NCBI GenBank assembly: GCA_017531445.1
Contig: JAFXKZ010000002.1
Location: forward strand, 85,213-149,212
Length of the DNA: 64,000 bases
Source: Kiritimatiellia bacterium
Lineage (GTDB): Bacteria; Verrucomicrobiota; Kiritimatiellia; RFP12; DVOR01
Direction: 5' to 3'
This document shows, one piece after another, positions 52,368-58,601 of this stretch. A program made the position numbers and the translations under genes. Numbering within the stretch: position 1 is the stretch's first letter; every line of letters begins with the position of its first letter. A model generated the notes under the pieces. The model made no database searches, was not told where the DNA came from, and saw nothing but the letters and a program-made list of their open reading frames with translations.

Positions 52368-52620
52368 GATTAAAATCCTTTCAATACGAAAACCTTGGAA
52401 GTATAGCACACCGGAAATAAAATGTCAAAATCTATTAAATGGTTATAGAGCAACATTCTTGTTTAGTAGAGGAATCGTTATGTGAAAGCAGAATTGCACG
52501 GCGAATGAAGCAATAAGGTAAAAATTGGCGTGTGCTTTCTCAGGGACGATTCAGGGTGTGCATTCGGCCATCGACTCGGAGATGGCTAAATAAAATACGG
52601 ATGCCGTGGATGGCATTTTT

Positions 52621-52686
52621 GAAGATGGGCGAAAGCGTGATTGCAGATGGGCGAAGTTACATAACAATGTCGCCCATGTTGAAACA
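52621..52686. repeat. Dispersed intergenic element, copy 4
   Basis: GAAGATGGGCGA...AGATGGGCGA...AATGTCGCCCATGTTGAAACA. Confidence 0.55.
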
Positions 52687-53599
52687 GAATCTCGTCCGCT
52701 TTGAAAGTGCCCTTGCAGGGAACGTTAATCACGGAAGATAGAAGTATAGTTGGTTTTCAAATCCAAGTAATCTTCCGGTAAAGCAAAGTGTAGGTAAGAC
52801 CATGGGGAAGGTGGCGACATTTTCAAATTAAAACGGCCTTCAGGTAAAACGAAGGAGTTGCCATTTCTTCAATGATTGAGAGCGGACTTCACGCGGATTG
52901 TGGTGCCCGGTTGCTCGCTCATCAGAATCGCCGAAGGGGCTTCCTATAGCGAATGTTCAGGCTAATAAAATGCGTCGCGCTGGGCGTAGGTATCAATATA
53001 CTGTCTTGGTTTTCCAAGTGTTGTGCATTCGAGTATATGTTAACACGTGACAATTGATTCATTGTGTAGGCGCACATGGGTAATAGTACGGAAGTCACAG
53101 AGATATTTGTGCGCCCAGATATTGGGTTTCTCTATGTCTGCGTAAAGTTAGGCCAACTTTACCGGAAAGCACATCGCTACGGCATCTTCAATAGAACCTG
53201 TTGGTTTGATGTAGTTTTCATTCTTGTGTCACAAAATCGGCAACCTTATTACCTATGCCCTTGCGTATGGGGACTATACGGAAGTTCTTTGTGCCGGAAA
53301 AAGAGTGGTATTAGACGGGAAATCGACGCTCAATTCTCGCACGGTTTCTCATGGATGATGAAATAATTGAACACTAATTTCACCGAACAATCGTGCGCTC
53401 TAACGGGATTGACCGATAGAACTGTGTCATTGGTAAGTTACATGGTTGGTGTCTGCTGCATGAAGACGATCGTAGAGAAAGTACAACACTGTCGCTTAAT
53501 TTCTTTCTGGTGTTTAATGGAGGGGGCCTGATAAATTATGGAAGAGAGAGAAATGGTTGCGACAGGTGTCGTAACGATGGGATGGGGTAGATACAAAAG

Positions 53600-53633
53600 A
53601 AAACAGCGTCTCACGAATTGTGAGACGCTGTTT
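53600..53633. terminator. Terminator after lsrF
   Basis: AAACAGCGTCTCAC-gaatt-GTGAGACGCTGTTT. Confidence 0.8.
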
Positions 53634-53655: not shown

Positions 53656-54528
53656 TCAGCGTGCAAGATCTTGATACATCTGGTACGCATCATCCGGTTT
53701 CATATTCTTGTGAATTACGGCAGAAACCGCGCGAATCATCGCAGCAGGATGCTCAGACTGGAAGACGTTGCGGCCCATATCAACGCCTGCTGCACCTTCG
53801 TTCATTGCGCGATAAGCGAGCTCAAGGGCGTCGCGTTCCGGCACTTTCTTTCCGCCTGCGATTACGATTGGCACAGGGCAGGAGGCCGTAACCGTCTCAA
53901 AGCCTTCGGTATAATAGGACTTTACGATGTTGGCACCGTTTTCTGCACACATGCGTGTGGCAAGACGGAAATACTTGGCATCACGTGTCATCTGCTTGCC
54001 GACTGCGGTTACACCCATCACGGGGATGCCATATTTCTGTCCGATGTCTACCGTGTGGTAAAGGTTGGCCATCGTCTTGGCTTCCATGAGTTCATCGCCC
54101 ACAGCCACCATTACTGCCATTGCCGAGACGTTCATGCGGATGGCGTCTTCCGGATCAATCACCACGTTGTCATTGAGATTGGTGAGGATTGAAGAGCCAG
54201 CATCCGAACGCAAGCAGACGGGAATCGTATTGGTCGGAGGAATGACCGAGCGGAGAATGCCGCGCGTACACATCAAGCAATCGGCATACTTCATCAACGG
54301 TACGATCGAAAGGTCAATGCGCTCCACACCTCCGGTCGGCCCCATGATAAAGCCGTGATCGCAGGCCAGCATCAACGATTTGCCGTCCTTGGGATTGAAA
54401 ATTCGCGAAAGACGGTTTTTCATACCCCAATCAAGATTTGAACACCCTTTCAGAGGGAAGCCGACTGTTTTCTGAGGTGTACCGACGCCGAAAGCGGATG
54501 CTTCCTTAAAATTATCCATATCTGCCAT
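53656..54528 (-). CDS. lsrF: 3-hydroxy-5-phosphonooxypentane-2,4-dione thiolase (LsrF; class I aldolase fold)
   Basis: LDWGMKNRLSRIF, MLACDHG..MGPT.G.ERID, TRGILR, IVKSYY, VIAGGKK and GVDMGRNVFQS. Confidence 0.9.
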   Translation of the reverse strand: MADMDNFKEASAFGVGTPQKTVGFPLKGCSNLDWGMKNRLSRIFNPKDGKSLMLACDHGFIMGPTGGVERIDLSIVPLMKYADCLMCTRGILRSVIPPTNTIPVCLRSDAGSSILTNLNDNVVIDPEDAIRMNVSAMAVMVAVGDELMEAKTMANLYHTVDIGQKYGIPVMGVTAVGKQMTRDAKYFRLATRMCAENGANIVKSYYTEGFETVTASCPVPIVIAGGKKVPERDALELAYRAMNEGAAGVDMGRNVFQSEHPAAMIRAVSAVIHKNMKPDDAYQMYQDLAR

Positions 54529-54577
54529 GGAAAAGCTCCTTGTGTTTTAAGATTATTTGGATAGGTGGGGCGAGAGA

Positions 54578-55180
54578 TTAAGCAACAAATGCTGCGAAGA
54601 TGACGGCCATGGAAGCGGATCCTGCGTCAATGGCACCGATGGAACGTTCACCCAGATTGCGGGCTCGACCGAACTTTGCCTGCATTTGTGCGGTGGCTTC
54701 AGACCCGGCTTTTGCGGCGGCGGCAGCAGCAGCAAACATCGCTGCTTCTCCTTGATCTTTGGCTGCGAGCAAAGCCTCGGTGGCAGGTTGGAGCGCATCC
54801 ATCATTGTTTTGTCACCTTTGCGCGCCTTCGTAACGCAGCAGATTTCATCAAAGCCGCCTTCAAACATTTCTGCGAGTTCTTCAGCGTCAAGCTCGGTTT
54901 TTCCTGCGGCGACAGCGTCTGCCATGCCTTCACACCACGCACCATACAGAGAGGACGTGGAGCCGGAGGCTTCGGTTTCAAGCTTTTCTGCCATATCGGT
55001 GATGTAGGCTTTGAAGTCATCACCTTCCGCGTGTACGATTGCGTTCAGTGCGGCAACAATCGCAGTGCCGTGATCACCATCTCCGCCGGTTGCCGCATCA
55101 AGCTCTGAAAACCGCTTCTCGTTTGCGTTGATATCAATTTGGGCTTTTTGCCAAATGGCCTTGAATTGTTCGAGTGTCAT
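54578..55180 (-). CDS. dhaL: Dihydroxyacetone kinase-like ADP-binding subunit L
   Basis: LDA..GGDGDHG, GDKTMMDAL and FGRARNLGERSIG.IDAG. Confidence 0.9.
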   Translation of the reverse strand: MTLEQFKAIWQKAQIDINANEKRFSELDAATGGDGDHGTAIVAALNAIVHAEGDDFKAYITDMAEKLETEASGSTSSLYGAWCEGMADAVAAGKTELDAEELAEMFEGGFDEICCVTKARKGDKTMMDALQPATEALLAAKDQGEAAMFAAAAAAAKAGSEATAQMQAKFGRARNLGERSIGAIDAGSASMAVIFAAFVA

Positions 55181-55208
55181 AGAATGAATCTTCCTTTCAT
55201 TGAGAAGC

Positions 55209-55241
55209 GGGCGATAACAAGTTTGCTTCTTGTTATCGCCC
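55209..55241. other. Intra-operon hairpin between dhaK and dhaL
   Basis: GGGCGATAACAAG-7 nt-CTTGTTATCGCCC. Confidence 0.6.
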
Positions 55242-55252
55242 GGTATGGCGAA

Positions 55253-56260
55253 TCAACCGTTGCAAGTCCAGTAGGGGGTGTTCGCCGTTGCTTTGAGAAG
55301 AGCTTCTGTTTCCGGCGTTACCTTGGCCAGAGTCATCTGGAAGCCGGCCATTTCCTGAACAGTCAAGAGTTCGGTAGCCAGACCATTGACGAGGGAGATG
55401 CCCATGCCCATCAAGACCTTGGCCGCAGCACGGTAGCAAATGAGCATTTCCATTGCGGTGGTGGCACCGGAACCATTGATGATAAGCAGTGCGCGGTCGC
55501 CGGATTCCAATTTCGTGGCGGCAACAAGACGCTCAATCATGATTTTGGCCGTTTCATCTGCGGACTGCACTTTCATTACGCCGCCGCCGCCTTCACCATG
55601 CTGCCCCATGCCGATTTCCATTTCGTCATCAGCGAGCGCGCCGATTTCAGCACCGTTTTGCGGATGCGTTGCGACTTTGAGTGCCACAGAGAGCGTGGCA
55701 AGCTGTGCATGAAACGCGTTGCCGATAGCGAGCACTTCATCGATGTTCTTTCCGGCTTCGCAAGCGGCCCCCATAATCTTCATCAGGGGAATGCAACCGC
55801 CCAGACCACGGCGATCTTCCGGGTCGGCATCGATGCCGGGGGCGATATCTTCCTGAACAATAATTTCCTTCACGTTCTCAATGCCGGCTTTTTCTGCGAG
55901 GCGCAGTGCCTTGCGAGCGGCCATGCGGTCGCCATTGTGGTTGAGCGTGAGCAGAATTACGCCAGCGGGGCGTTTGAACATTTCAATGGCTTCAAAGACC
56001 TTCGGACCGCCGGGTGCGGCAAAGACATCGCCGGCAACGGCTGCGTCTGCCATACCTTCGCCAACGAATCCGTGCATGGCAGGTTCGTGACCGGTGCCGC
56101 CGAAGCAGATCAATGCCACTTTGTCTTCGGCTTTGGGTTGTGCACGCACAACGATGCGTTCGTTGACAATTTTCACCTTGTCGGAGTAGGCGAGACCGAG
56201 ACCTTCCAGCATTTCTGCGGTAAGGTTGGCCGGGTCATTCATAAATTTCTTCATGGGCAT
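55253..56260 (-). CDS. dhaK: Dihydroxyacetone kinase-like substrate-binding subunit K (divergent pocket)
   Basis: KKFMNDP, GGTGHEP, GDVFAAP, NHNGD, RRGLGG, GMGQHGEGG and EMAGFQMT. Confidence 0.88.
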   Translation of the reverse strand: MPMKKFMNDPANLTAEMLEGLGLAYSDKVKIVNERIVVRAQPKAEDKVALICFGGTGHEPAMHGFVGEGMADAAVAGDVFAAPGGPKVFEAIEMFKRPAGVILLTLNHNGDRMAARKALRLAEKAGIENVKEIIVQEDIAPGIDADPEDRRGLGGCIPLMKIMGAACEAGKNIDEVLAIGNAFHAQLATLSVALKVATHPQNGAEIGALADDEMEIGMGQHGEGGGGVMKVQSADETAKIMIERLVAATKLESGDRALLIINGSGATTAMEMLICYRAAAKVLMGMGISLVNGLATELLTVQEMAGFQMTLAKVTPETEALLKATANTPYWTCNG

Positions 56261-56296
56261 GGAAGTGTTCCTTAGTGTGTTAAAGGTTGGTAATCG

Positions 56297-56608
56297 TTAC
56301 TTGGCTTGGTAGAATTCCACCACGGTGTTGTTGTCATAGACGAAGGCGATGTAGGCATTGCCGATATCCATTTTGTCCCAAAGAATGGATTTGCCCGCGA
56401 TGGCCTCATCAATGTTTTCCACGCGATAAGCGACATGGGGTTGTTCTTGAATAGCAGCTGCCATGGGCGAGTCGGGCTCAAAATAGAGGAATTCGATTTT
56501 GTATTTGTCCGTTTCGCCTCCTGCGATCCAAACTTTCAAGGGCTCAACAAAGGTCATGTTCGGCATTTTTTCGCCGACAATCATACCGGTATGCATGTAT
56601 TCCATCAC
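56297..56608 (-). CDS. Small VOC/glyoxalase-like protein
   Basis: HTG..., KIEFLYFE, PHVAYRVENIDEAI and VVEFYQ; GAGG RBS. Confidence 0.6.
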   Translation of the reverse strand: MMEYMHTGMIVGEKMPNMTFVEPLKVWIAGGETDKYKIEFLYFEPDSPMAAAIQEQPHVAYRVENIDEAIAGKSILWDKMDIGNAYIAFVYDNNTVVEFYQAK

Positions 56609-56650
56609 GAGGATTCCTTTTTAGTGAATTGAAGATTGCTGTGGTAAAAC

Positions 56651-57373
56651 TCAGAATGCGACATTCGGGCAGGTGAAGCGCAAGCCGTTGCCATCGTGAT
56701 AGGTGGCATATTCAGAGACGATTGCGCCTTCCGGGCCGCCCATCATGAAGTGCCACGTTTCATCTTTGGCCAAACGATGCACCTGACCATCAGCTTCCCA
56801 CTTTTCCACATGGACGCTCTTCAGCGTAGGAAGCTGGCACTTGGCAAGCATCGCCTTGACTTCGGGATACTGGTCAAGATTGGGTTCGCCGACTTCGCTG
56901 AAACCATAGACGGAGCCATAGCGCACCTGCCAAGCTTCGTGCTTGCACTGCAAGGGCCCCTTGTCATCGGTCGTGGGCTTATGGCTGTGTTCTGCAATGG
57001 ACTGACCGGGCAGAAGGAAAATTTCGTGCGCGAAGTACTGTTTATCACGATTGTTTTCCCAGAAGACGCCTCCCATGCCAAATGCGGCAAAATCGCCCTG
57101 GGCGAAGTCTACCGCCCACAAGAAACCGGGCTCATCGGTATAGCGGGCATAGACCGGCGCACCGAGCTTCTTCATTAAATCAATATAGGCCTGCTTGCCT
57201 TTTTCTCCGTCAAACTTGCCATTGGTGTAGAAATCTGCATTATTCACTTGTACCATCTCCTTTGCTTTCGCAGGTTGACAGGTTGCTTTACCGCAGCAGC
57301 CTGTAGAAAATCCCATTACTGTGGCAACGAGTGCCGCCATCGCGCCAACGCGCACAATTTTAACAATGTCCAT
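56651..57373 (-). CDS. Cupin, D-lyxose-isomerase-like, with a lipoprotein signal peptide
   Basis: LLPGQSIAEHSH..KHE metal motif, WHF and IVSEYATYHD; N-terminal MDIVKIVRVGAMAALVATVMGFSTG/C. Confidence 0.6.
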   Translation of the reverse strand: MDIVKIVRVGAMAALVATVMGFSTGCCGKATCQPAKAKEMVQVNNADFYTNGKFDGEKGKQAYIDLMKKLGAPVYARYTDEPGFLWAVDFAQGDFAAFGMGGVFWENNRDKQYFAHEIFLLPGQSIAEHSHKPTTDDKGPLQCKHEAWQVRYGSVYGFSEVGEPNLDQYPEVKAMLAKCQLPTLKSVHVEKWEADGQVHRLAKDETWHFMMGGPEGAIVSEYATYHDGNGLRFTCPNVAF

Positions 57374-57942
57374 GTGTATTCCTTTCAACGTGAAAGAGCA
57401 GAAACTCCACCCTCCATCATTTACAAGTATTGTAGTTTTTTTTTCTGCTATTTGCAAGTGTAAAACGGTAAAAATAGGGCTGTTTTAGAATAAAAACGAT
57501 GAAAATTTCAATATATTTTGCTATTTCCTATAAGAAAACACGTTTTTGGGGAAGATGAAGACAAGGGGGAGTATTTGGCTTGATTGCACTTTTAGCGGTT
57601 GGCTCTTTGCTTGGTAATGTGTTTTCGCTGTAGCTTCTTTTCAGCAATCAAGGGCTTTCTATTTCAAGTTTTCAACTGTTTTGTACTATTTGGGGTATCA
57701 AATAAGTTATTGTGGGGCAATACTTTATGTCGAGCAAAATGTTTTCCCTAAATAGTGTAGGAAAAATAGTACAAAGTGCTGAAAAACTCTAATTTTTTAT
57801 CCTCAAAGACTGCTGAGTTTTGGCTAAACCCTAACGTCTTTTGCTTTCAAATTGGACCAAACTAAACCTAAAAGATGGTTGCTTTTACTCGGCATCCAGC
57901 CGAGGAAGCGCTTAAAAGACGGTTGAGTTGTCCACTTTTCAC

Positions 57943-57972
57943 ACTTAAGTCATTATACATAATGACTTATCC
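57943..57972. other. Palindromic site at the GC-skew switch: candidate dif-like chromosome dimer resolution site
   Basis: TAAGTCATTAT-AC-ATAATGACTTA (perfect 11-bp arms, 57946-57969). The plus strand is G-rich before it and C-rich after it. Confidence 0.45.
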
Positions 57973-58147
57973 ATTTTCGCAACCTTGAGCAAAAACTCAA
58001 AAAAGCCCCAAAAATGACGTAAAACTTAGTTTACCACAAAAAGCATTTCCACTTTTTCAAAAAAATCTTCAAAGCCTTTACACAGCACTTCAAAATCCAC
58101 AAAACCTCTCCTTTTCGCGCATTCCAAATCACTTCTCTACAAGTATA

Positions 58148-58601
58148 TCACAATGCCAAGCCGCTACATTCACTCGTTACCCCAAAAGAGCACTCAAAAG
58201 CGTAAATGATGCTTAAAATAAAACGCTCAATGTGAAAAGAGGGATTAAGCGTAAAAAGGAGATAGTGTGAAAAGAGCGCAAAGCGCGCACGGGAAATTCC
58301 CGTCCCCACCTCAAAATCAATCCACACGAAAGAAAGCCCTCCCCCAGAACTAGAACGAATCGCTGTAACCCCTGGTAATCCATTAACAGAAGACTCTATT
58401 GGAATTGTCACCAAACGCTCCACCTCATCTGCTGAAAGCCCCCCCAGCCTCCGTCTGAATAACAATACGCGGCACCGAAATGTCTGGAAAAACATCCACC
58501 GAAAGGTTTTTAGAGACATGCCAGCCCATTACCGCTAAAATACCCACAATAGCCAAAATGGTTTTTGGCCACTTCAAAATCAATGTAAAGAAACGCAACA
58601 T
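58148..58601 (-). pseudogene. Truncated, frameshifted CusA/CzcA-family heavy-metal RND efflux gene remnant
   Basis: LSVDVFPDISVPRIVIQTEAGG, then a +1 G in a G7 run (58439-58445), then LSADEVERLVTIPIESSVNGLPGV..IRSSS..GLSFVWIDF. Homology is lost after about 58280. Confidence 0.85.

Follow-up and report, generated by a model that had tools for sequence, protein, structure and literature searches.

A conserved cupin-VOC-DhaK-DhaL-LsrF operon in a Kiritimatiellia bacterium as a candidate module for keto-sugar catabolism

The window analysed here is a stretch of 64,000 nucleotides from the genome of a Kiritimatiellia bacterium (NCBI GenBank assembly GCA_017531445.1, contig JAFXKZ010000002.1, positions 85,213 to 149,212). 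On its minus strand, at 57373..53656 of the window, lie five co-oriented open reading frames (ORFs) in the order cupin-VOC-DhaK-DhaL-LsrF. An earlier description, hereafter the sequence-only reading, had proposed that these genes replace the Lsr pathway for the signal autoinducer-2 (AI-2) or degrade a rare sugar by a similar route. Its coordinates, gene order, co-orientation and terminator proved correct on an ORF check and with a hairpin of 14-bp stem found 3' of lsrF. We consider the operon, with a probability of roughly 0.55, to be a self-contained module that breaks down a small neutral keto- or diketo-sugar and ends in LsrF-type cleavage to dihydroxyacetone phosphate (DHAP).

The five genes and their products

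All five genes are read from the minus strand. The first (57373..56651) encodes the cupin, a 240-aa exported lipoprotein of the D-lyxose/D-mannose isomerase family. It is followed by a VOC protein (56608/56605..56297; 103 or 102 aa, the ATG at 56605 being the probable start), by DhaK of a divergent subfamily (56260..55253; 335 aa), by the nucleotide-binding subunit DhaL (55180..54578; 200 aa), and by LsrF, an enzyme of class I aldolase fold (54528..53656; 290 aa). The intergenic gaps are, in operon order, 42-45, 36, 72 and 49 nt, and there is no transporter or dehydrogenase gene within the five-gene operon. An intrinsic-terminator-like hairpin (53633..53601, minus strand; 14-bp stem, 5-nt loop, T-rich tail) lies 22 nt past the lsrF stop. 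The consensus scan that was the only source of promoter candidates gave a sigma-70-like site at 57457..57429 on the minus strand (TTGCAA, 17 nt, TACAAT), 56 nt 5' of the cupin ATG; it is a weak candidate, since such sites are not more frequent in this region than in shuffled sequence.

The source genome, with two contigs totalling 1.40 Mb, has a completeness of only 50%, so that claims of absence rest on the genomes of relatives: 41 genomes were searched, namely the source genome and 40 relatives, including 24 congeners. The nearest relatives are gut metagenome-assembled genomes (MAGs) labelled Candidatus Spyradenecus, Kiritimatiellae or Lentisphaeraceae, from ruminants and other animals. For neighbourhood comparison, 35 LsrF loci were found with the LsrF protein as query; a second scan, made with an alignment, returned at least 592 LsrF relatives in species genomes, the best 80 of which were inspected, and the collection came to 114 loci in all.

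E. coli LsrF is a coenzyme A (CoA)-dependent thiolase that turns a substrate derived from phosphorylated 4,5-dihydroxy-2,3-pentanedione (DPD) into DHAP and acetyl-CoA. The terminal enzyme of the operon belongs to this family, as the sequence-only reading had held: it passes the NCBI LsrF equivalog model NF006081 with 443.7 bits (cut-off 297), stays far under the cut-offs of related aldolase models and retains the full catalytic set. Its alignment with E. coli LsrF covers the whole length at 56% identity, and the structures 3GKF/4P2V are matched at 361 bits. In LsrF, Lys203 forms the Schiff base, Asp57 is the general base, and His58, Arg254 and Gly226/227/253 are phosphate ligands; Asp251 becomes Ser or Ala in fructose-bisphosphate (FBP) aldolase and in 2-amino-3,7-dideoxy-D-threo-hept-6-ulosonate (ADH) synthase (PMC2728841). 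The operon LsrF has Lys203, Asp57, His58, Asp250 (E. coli Asp251), Arg253 and Gly225-Gly226 at these positions, and an alignment of ten diverse homologues shows Lys203, Asp57, His58, Asp251, Arg254 and the Gly-Gly phosphate loop (E. coli numbering) to be invariant.

These residues bear on a simpler possibility, a plain isomerase-kinase-aldolase route like those for fucose and rhamnose. The cupin would then convert an aldose into a ketose, DhaKL would form the ketose 1-phosphate, and the LsrF homologue, as an ordinary class I aldolase, would release DHAP and an aldehyde, the glyoxalase-like VOC protein handling a reactive 2-oxoaldehyde. D-lyxose isomerases are indeed aldose-ketose isomerases, the LsrF fold with its Lys and Asp residues is of the class I aldolase type, the nearest solved relatives of the VOC protein include glyoxalase I, and the operon lacks a dehydrogenase to make a diketone. 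However, the invariant residue is Asp251, the very one that distinguishes LsrF from FBP aldolases and ADH synthase, the score is far over the LsrF equivalog cut-off and far under those of the aldolase models, and acyl-CoA-using enzymes adjoin the genes in two lineages (see below). We regard such a route as unlikely.

The kinase subunits fall within their families but short of the equivalog cut-offs. DhaK matches Dak1 at 298 bits and the dhaK1 equivalog at 263, under its cut-off of 406, and DhaL matches Dak2 at 126 bits and the dha_L equivalog at 118, under its cut-off of 138. The closest solved relative of DhaK is that of L. lactis (3CT4). Its motifs are GTGH58EP, LNHNGD111 and GMGQH221GEGG, compared with KNYTGD and GVGIHGEPG in E. 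coli, and His58, Asp111 and His221 are retained; DhaL carries the nucleotide motif GGDGDHG at residues 32-38. The retained His/Asp/His and the altered pocket had both been recorded in the sequence-only reading, whose quoted DhaK motifs are correct, and the pocket changes turn out to be family-wide: the signature LNH[NAS]GD plus G[MA]GQHGE[GA]G, which differs from E. coli, is kept in 29/29 DhaKs of such cassettes across phyla. Because the changes are conserved in all 29, the altered motifs mark, at the level of sequence, a distinct subfamily and not drift, and the signature points to a pocket for something other than dihydroxyacetone.

The comparison with DhaKLM of E. coli and L. lactis is accordingly mixed. 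The operon shares with it the separate DhaK and DhaL, the His/Asp/His of DhaK and the Mg-nucleotide motif of DhaL; unlike it, the operon has an altered DhaK pocket, partners unrelated to glycerol metabolism, and no DhaM. The EIIA-man domain of DhaM (PF03610) was found in 0/41 genomes, with control genomes positive, and thus neither in the window nor in the source genome, and no DhaM is linked in the cassette loci examined. DhaKL is therefore presumably ATP-dependent. An ordinary dihydroxyacetone or glycerol kinase operon that happens to lie beside unrelated genes would account for the Dak1 and Dak2 domains and their intact catalytic residues. It is nevertheless very improbable, given two subunits under the equivalog cut-offs, pocket motifs altered in a conserved manner, the lack of DhaM just described, and a linkage to LsrF, VOC and cupin genes that recurs across phyla.

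The VOC protein had no Pfam (Glyoxalase included) or NCBIfam match at E <= 0.01. Its model (pLDDT 95) is a VOC domain of paired beta-alpha-beta-beta-beta modules, the best folds being BH1468 (3OA4), C. acetobutylicum Ni-glyoxalase I (3HDP) and methylmalonyl-CoA epimerases (6BU2 among the fold matches), and a profile search gave 2QH0/3HDP at E 2e-6. The metal ligands His5, Glu38, His57 and Glu97, counted from the ATG at 56605, are invariant in 15 homologues. The single-chain paired modules and the His/Glu/His/Glu site are shared with the glyoxalase I/methylmalonyl-CoA epimerase branch (3HDP, human MCEE); compared with those solved relatives, the protein is, at ~103 aa, ~30 residues shorter, and it matches no curated model.

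The cupin likewise had no Pfam or NCBIfam match at E <= 0.01, PF07385 included. Its N-terminus reads MDIVKIVRVGAMAALVATVMGFSTG up to the lipobox Cys26, a lipoprotein-type signal. The AlphaFold model, made from 15 homologues, has pLDDT 85; its best folds in Foldseek are the D-lyxose isomerases 7NZO and 2Y0O (E 6e-13, target TM-score 0.84), and a profile search gave 7NZO at E 2.3e-16. In the Thermofilum enzyme TsLI, H75, H77, K86, E88, H143, E156 and D163 serve Mn binding and isomerisation (PMC8378251). All of these align with cupin residues, namely His129, His131, Lys144, Glu146, His208, Glu221 and Asp227, of which the first six are invariant in the 15 homologues and D227 is nearly so. The cupin thus resembles the D-lyxose/D-mannose isomerases (TsLI 7NZO, B. 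subtilis YdaE 2Y0O, E. coli Z5688) in fold and in the full Mn-binding and catalytic set, and differs from them in its lipoprotein or Tat signal, an extra N-terminal helical segment and an identity of only 25%. Judged by their models, the cupin and the VOC protein are both metal-dependent enzymes of the isomerase/epimerase type.

The site of action of the cupin can be narrowed by its signals. A lipoprotein signal is present here and in other PVC bacteria, and a Tat-type signal in Flavobacteriaceae and Carboxylicivirga; a signal is absent in a Pirellulales MAG (locus L016) and in the alphaproteobacterium Polycladidibacter stylochi (L060). The cupin is thus exported where no importer is linked, and cytoplasmic in Polycladidibacter, where a CUT2 ABC importer is linked, and in the Pirellulales MAG. 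Since its predicted location is outside the cytoplasm in most lineages, the cupin must act on an unphosphorylated compound, upstream of the kinase, whether outside or inside the cell, and an exported cupin cannot take over the LsrG step, whose substrate is phosphorylated. The suggestion that the cupin or the VOC protein takes the place of LsrG consequently fails for the cupin and stands as a possibility for the cytoplasmic VOC protein only.

Conservation of the cassette and absence of Lsr partners

The order cupin-VOC-DhaK-DhaL-LsrF recurs among the 35 loci of the first search, in Kiritimatiellia, Verrucomicrobiota, Pirellulales and several families of Bacteroidota; the set lacks the cupin in two MAGs labelled Actinomycetes and Phascolarctobacterium. 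DhaK and DhaL lie directly beside lsrF in ~62 of the best 80 of at least 592 LsrF loci, and among these 80 the DhaKL-lsrF loci span Kiritimatiellia, Verrucomicrobiota, Planctomycetota, Bacteroidota, an alphaproteobacterium and Phascolarctobacterium. HMM searches of the 114 loci detected a VOC gene in 72 and a cupin gene in 55. The arrangement is far beyond chance, and the objection that the gene combination might not be conserved, foreseen in the sequence-only reading, fails on this neighbourhood comparison.

In a maximum-likelihood tree, E. coli LsrF falls outside a 104-row clade (support 91/91) that contains all DhaKL-linked LsrFs. Inside this clade, a well-supported subclade of ten LsrFs sits in other contexts, with ribulose-phosphate-3-epimerase-like enzymes, short-chain dehydrogenases/reductases (SDRs), class II aldolase-SDR fusions, UPF0261 and phosphoenolpyruvate (PEP)-hydrolase-like proteins, or a fused ATP-type Dak. 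Because LsrF relatives nested in the cassette clade occupy different sugar-phosphate contexts, an identity of 56-65% to E. coli LsrF is, as the tree suggests, compatible with more than one substrate and does not fix it.

Two of these other contexts were seen repeatedly. In Akkermansiaceae and Oceaniferula spumae (L075, L082, L118), LsrF homologues 62-65% identical to the LsrF of the window belong to a different conserved cluster with an AraC-PAS regulator, a PEP-hydrolase-like protein, UPF0261, a ribulose-phosphate-3-epimerase-like enzyme and an SDR, which may be another uncharacterised pathway ending in LsrF. A third LsrF context, in L083, L087, L111 and L114, always includes a class II aldolase-SDR fusion and xylose-isomerase-like TIM barrels. 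A second Dak clade occurs in L083, L087 and L111, and in L111 it takes the form of a fused DhaK-DhaL of 584 aa.

LsrF exceeds its cut-off in 24/41 genomes: the source genome, 22 of the 24 congeners and one member of another genus. In one further congener (G005) the match is truncated and falls just short of the cut-off; counting it brings LsrF to 23/24 congeners. The proteins that process AI-2 upstream of LsrF were found in none of these genomes. The LsrK equivalog NF008187 and the LsrG equivalog NF007791 were each over cut-off in 0/41 genomes, most congeners being without any FGGY hit, and PF03992 was not found in the source genome. Neither lsrK nor lsrG is linked to any of the 114 LsrF loci, and tblastn of the source genome (50% complete) with E. 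coli LsrK, LsrG, LsrB, LsrC, LsrD, LsrR and LuxS gave no match. The absence of DhaM, lsrK and lsrG noted in the sequence-only reading hence holds in all 41 genomes, and that of lsrACDB agrees with the lack of LsrB, LsrC and LsrD matches in this tblastn search.

In the enterobacterial Lsr route, LsrK phosphorylates AI-2 (DPD), LsrG isomerises the product and LsrF cleaves it. The cassette is similar to the Lsr system of E. coli and Salmonella in having a close LsrF relative, in a succession of kinase, isomerase and cleavage to DHAP, and in the LsrR-family regulators of some of its relatives. In contrast, its kinase is a two-subunit Dak-family enzyme rather than the FGGY kinase LsrK, its candidate isomerase is a VOC metalloenzyme rather than the cofactor-free LsrG of ABM fold, it has an extra exported D-lyxose-isomerase-like cupin and no LsrACDB, and its LsrFs form a separate clade.

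The cassette might nevertheless consume AI-2 independently of Lsr. DPD, or an isomer of it made by the exported cupin, would enter the cell; DhaKL would stand in for LsrK and the VOC protein for LsrG, converting phospho-DPD (P-DPD) into 3-hydroxy-2,4-pentanedione 5-phosphate (P-HPD); and LsrF would yield DHAP and acetyl-CoA, with gut AI-2 being quenched. This would be the special case of the keto-sugar module in which the tail is acetyl. Phascolarctobacterium, a genus that ferments few sugars, carries the cassette, and DPD has the carbonyl-CHOH-CH2OH unit of glyceraldehyde, a substrate accepted by Dak-family kinases. Also in favour are the strong LsrF orthology signal with Asp251 kept, the lack of LsrK and LsrG in genomes that have LsrF, and the LsrR-family (SorC) regulators adjacent in three lineages. 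In addition, the literature describes the fate of AI-2 as unknown in bacteria without the canonical enzymes (PMC7828210).

However, no LsrB-like binding protein is linked to the cassette: for the binding protein of the Polycladidibacter locus, the best NCBIfam match is RbsB, at only 56 bits, and LsrB is not among its matches. Large exported haem-c proteins with carbohydrate-binding modules (CBMs) are linked at 35 loci and sulfatases at several, and a signal scavenger would have no need of them. Together with the separation of the cassette LsrFs from E. coli LsrF in the tree, and with no publication found that ties these genes to AI-2, this makes AI-2 itself a rather doubtful substrate.

Recurrent partners and flanking DNA

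The recurrent partners were found by clustering the neighbouring ORFs of the LsrF loci. They comprise an exported protein of 1,160-1,330 aa that joins an NPCBM or discoidin module to a hydrazine-synthase-alpha (HZS-alpha)-like haem domain and a formylglycine-generating-enzyme (FGE)-sulfatase fold (35 loci), an exported Mala s 1-like beta-propeller (26 loci), an exported beta-propeller fused to a MauG-like cytochrome c (19 loci), a fused ResB-CcsA cytochrome c synthase (19 loci), a cytoplasmic FkbO-N/RidA protein (15 loci), an IclR regulator (9 loci), an S1 sulfatase (7 loci) and a DUF1097 membrane protein (5 loci). A supposed TRAP transporter upstream in Verrucomicrobiota loci was rejected, the genes being a MarR regulator and an efflux pump.

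In the cultured P. stylochi, the cassette lies inside a CUT2 monosaccharide ABC operon with a cytoplasmic cupin and a SorC/DeoR-type regulator, and this operon directly adjoins a canonical rbsCBRK ribose operon. Being in culture, P. stylochi would be a convenient organism in which to identify the substrate. Distant SorC/LsrR-family regulators are adjacent only in L018, L019, L031 and L060, which represent three lineages; regulators of this family typically sense phospho-sugars. A Pta-AckA-like fusion adjoins the cassette in the Pirellulales locus L016 and a YiiD-type thioesterase in L026, from a Kiritimatiellales MAG. By their family assignments, the SorC regulators fit a phospho-sugar inducer, and the Pta-AckA-like fusion and the thioesterase fit an acyl-CoA product.

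Both kinds of haem protein are encoded elsewhere in the source genome. A separate operon on the minus strand at C2:60494-64264 (L123 4494-8264) specifies an exported beta-propeller/di-haem cytochrome c of 667 aa with two CxxCH motifs (C2:62.3-64.3 kb), an FkbO-N/RidA-like protein of 337 aa and an exported GDSL esterase; in many Bacteroidota cassettes, the propeller-cytochrome c and FkbO-N/RidA genes sit directly upstream of the cupin. On the plus strand at C2:498195-502070 (L124 6196-10071) lies the gene for an exported 1,291-aa protein with a discoidin (F5/8 type C) module, an HZS-alpha-like haem domain with two CxxCH motifs and a C-terminal FGE-sulfatase fold, 49% identical to a cassette-adjacent protein in another Kiritimatiellia MAG. 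Across the 41 genomes, the HZS-alpha domain and LsrF occur together in 24, LsrF only in 1, the domain only in 1 and neither in 15, a co-occurrence that counts for no more than about two independent lineages. An HZS-alpha-type domain without LsrF is present in B. thetaiotaomicron, so the link between haem protein and LsrF is not obligatory. The large haem protein and the propeller-cytochrome c form a pair that, we presume, resembles the subunits of hydrazine synthase. Literature searches on the haem-protein architecture, or on Parabacteroides with dihydroxyacetone kinase, found nothing relevant.

The DNA around the operon contributes less. No flank synteny with congeners was found at the DNA or protein level, and the flanks are therefore uninformative on function. 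Scans of 52410-53600 and 57374-58150 gave no convincing ORF, tRNA or Rfam match. The former stretch, which separates the operon terminator from secG by ~1.2 kb, does not resemble the corresponding flank of congeners at the DNA level; the latter, upstream of the operon, is a gene-free, AT-rich stretch of ~780 bp (~40% GC), two short pieces of which (60 and 37 bases; ~90% identical) are repeated ~8.5 kb off at C2:151788-151969. Beyond it, at 58148-58519 on the minus strand, a 123-aa ORF includes the segment VTIPIESSVNGLPGVTAIRSSSGGGLSFVWIDF, which is like the N-terminal part of a resistance-nodulation-division (RND) efflux pump, and may be a gene fragment. A horizontal-transfer island, considered on grounds of composition, was rejected: the operon has 52.6% GC against 51.5-52.8% for the genome, and the AT-rich part is the flanks.

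Proposed route and its significance

The module we favour would start outside the cytoplasm, where the lipoprotein cupin, a periplasmic relative of Mn/Co-type D-lyxose isomerases, would move a carbonyl via a cis-enediol to leave a 2-keto, 1-hydroxymethyl (hydroxyacetone-like) end. Uptake would follow, in relatives by the DUF1097 membrane protein or the CUT2 ABC system. DhaK would then bind the carbonyl via His221, and the nucleotide bound by DhaL would phosphorylate the terminal hydroxyl. In the next step the cytoplasmic VOC metalloenzyme would epimerise or isomerise the phosphorylated intermediate, as LsrG does, to a 2,4-diketo-3-hydroxy 1-phosphate. Finally, LsrF would form a Schiff base via Lys203 and pass the acyl part to CoA, giving DHAP and an acyl-CoA. 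We infer the substrate, the order of the kinase and VOC steps, the ATP dependence of the kinase and thiolytic rather than aldol cleavage.

Directly observed are the gene order and its conservation, the families and folds of the proteins, catalytic residues that are intact, an export signal on the cupin, and the lack of LsrK, LsrG and DhaM; the keto-sugar module builds on these. It shares with the L-fucose and L-rhamnose isomerase-kinase-aldolase routes and with the DHAP shunt (5-deoxyribose, methylthioribose) its end in DHAP and a short carbon fragment; unlike in those routes, all cassette enzymes are from other families, the isomerase is extracytoplasmic and the cleavage is of LsrF type.

Several points weigh against it. 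The operon, having no transporter or dehydrogenase, does not account for the origin of a 2,4-diketone, except where the substrate is itself a diketone, for example DPD. The VOC gene was not detected in ~17 DhaKL-LsrF loci. Separate DhaK and DhaL subunits are normally dependent on the phosphotransferase system (PTS), and the source genome does encode EI and HPr. Furthermore, the nested LsrFs that lie with epimerases, SDRs and class II aldolases suggest that the chemistry of the family may extend beyond thiolysis.

With exported haem-c/CBM proteins, sulfatases and a CUT2 importer as its partners, the cassette favours a glycan-derived substrate that is pre-processed outside the cytoplasm. From these neighbours, a glycan-derived keto-sugar appears more likely as the substrate than AI-2 itself, and the exported haem-c proteins may be what makes it. 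The idea put forward in the sequence-only reading is partly supported: the route is real, conserved and Lsr-like, as seen from the LsrF family and the cross-phylum order, but the partner genes argue for a glycan sugar over a signal molecule. More speculatively, the cassette could be the cytoplasmic half of a widespread oxidative-thiolytic sugar pathway, with the two exported di-haem proteins as its periplasmic half. The haem proteins would make a periplasmic 4-keto sugar from a glycan-derived sugar, the cupin would turn it into a 2,4-diulose, and DhaKL, VOC and LsrF would convert the diulose into DHAP and an acyl-CoA able to yield ATP. Both haem proteins are encoded in the source genome away from the operon and co-occur with LsrF among the 41 genomes; we nonetheless hold this extension of the module to be quite improbable.

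The module is apparently unstudied. Full-text literature searches, some of them uninformative, found no paper that joins LsrF with DhaK or dihydroxyacetone kinase, a cupin, a glyoxalase or a lyxose isomerase, and the operon probably encodes a so far undescribed path by which a small keto-sugar reaches central metabolism. The annotation '3-hydroxy-5-phosphonooxypentane-2,4-dione thiolase' implies an AI-2 pathway that is otherwise missing from these genomes. Were AI-2 the substrate, abundant gut anaerobes would silently quench interspecies signalling, with a bearing on AI-2 metabolism outside the enterobacterial Lsr system. If the keto-sugar module is correct, it would be an unrecognised entry route into central carbon metabolism in at least about 60 species representatives of six or more phyla. 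Among the carriers are gut Bacteroidota in culture (Parabacteroides acidifaciens, Parabacteroides spp., Millionella massiliensis) as well as marine degraders of glycans. The module would give LsrF a role beyond the disposal of a quorum signal, let Dak-family kinases act, independently of the PTS, on more than trioses and tetruloses, and extend the D-lyxose isomerases into the periplasm.

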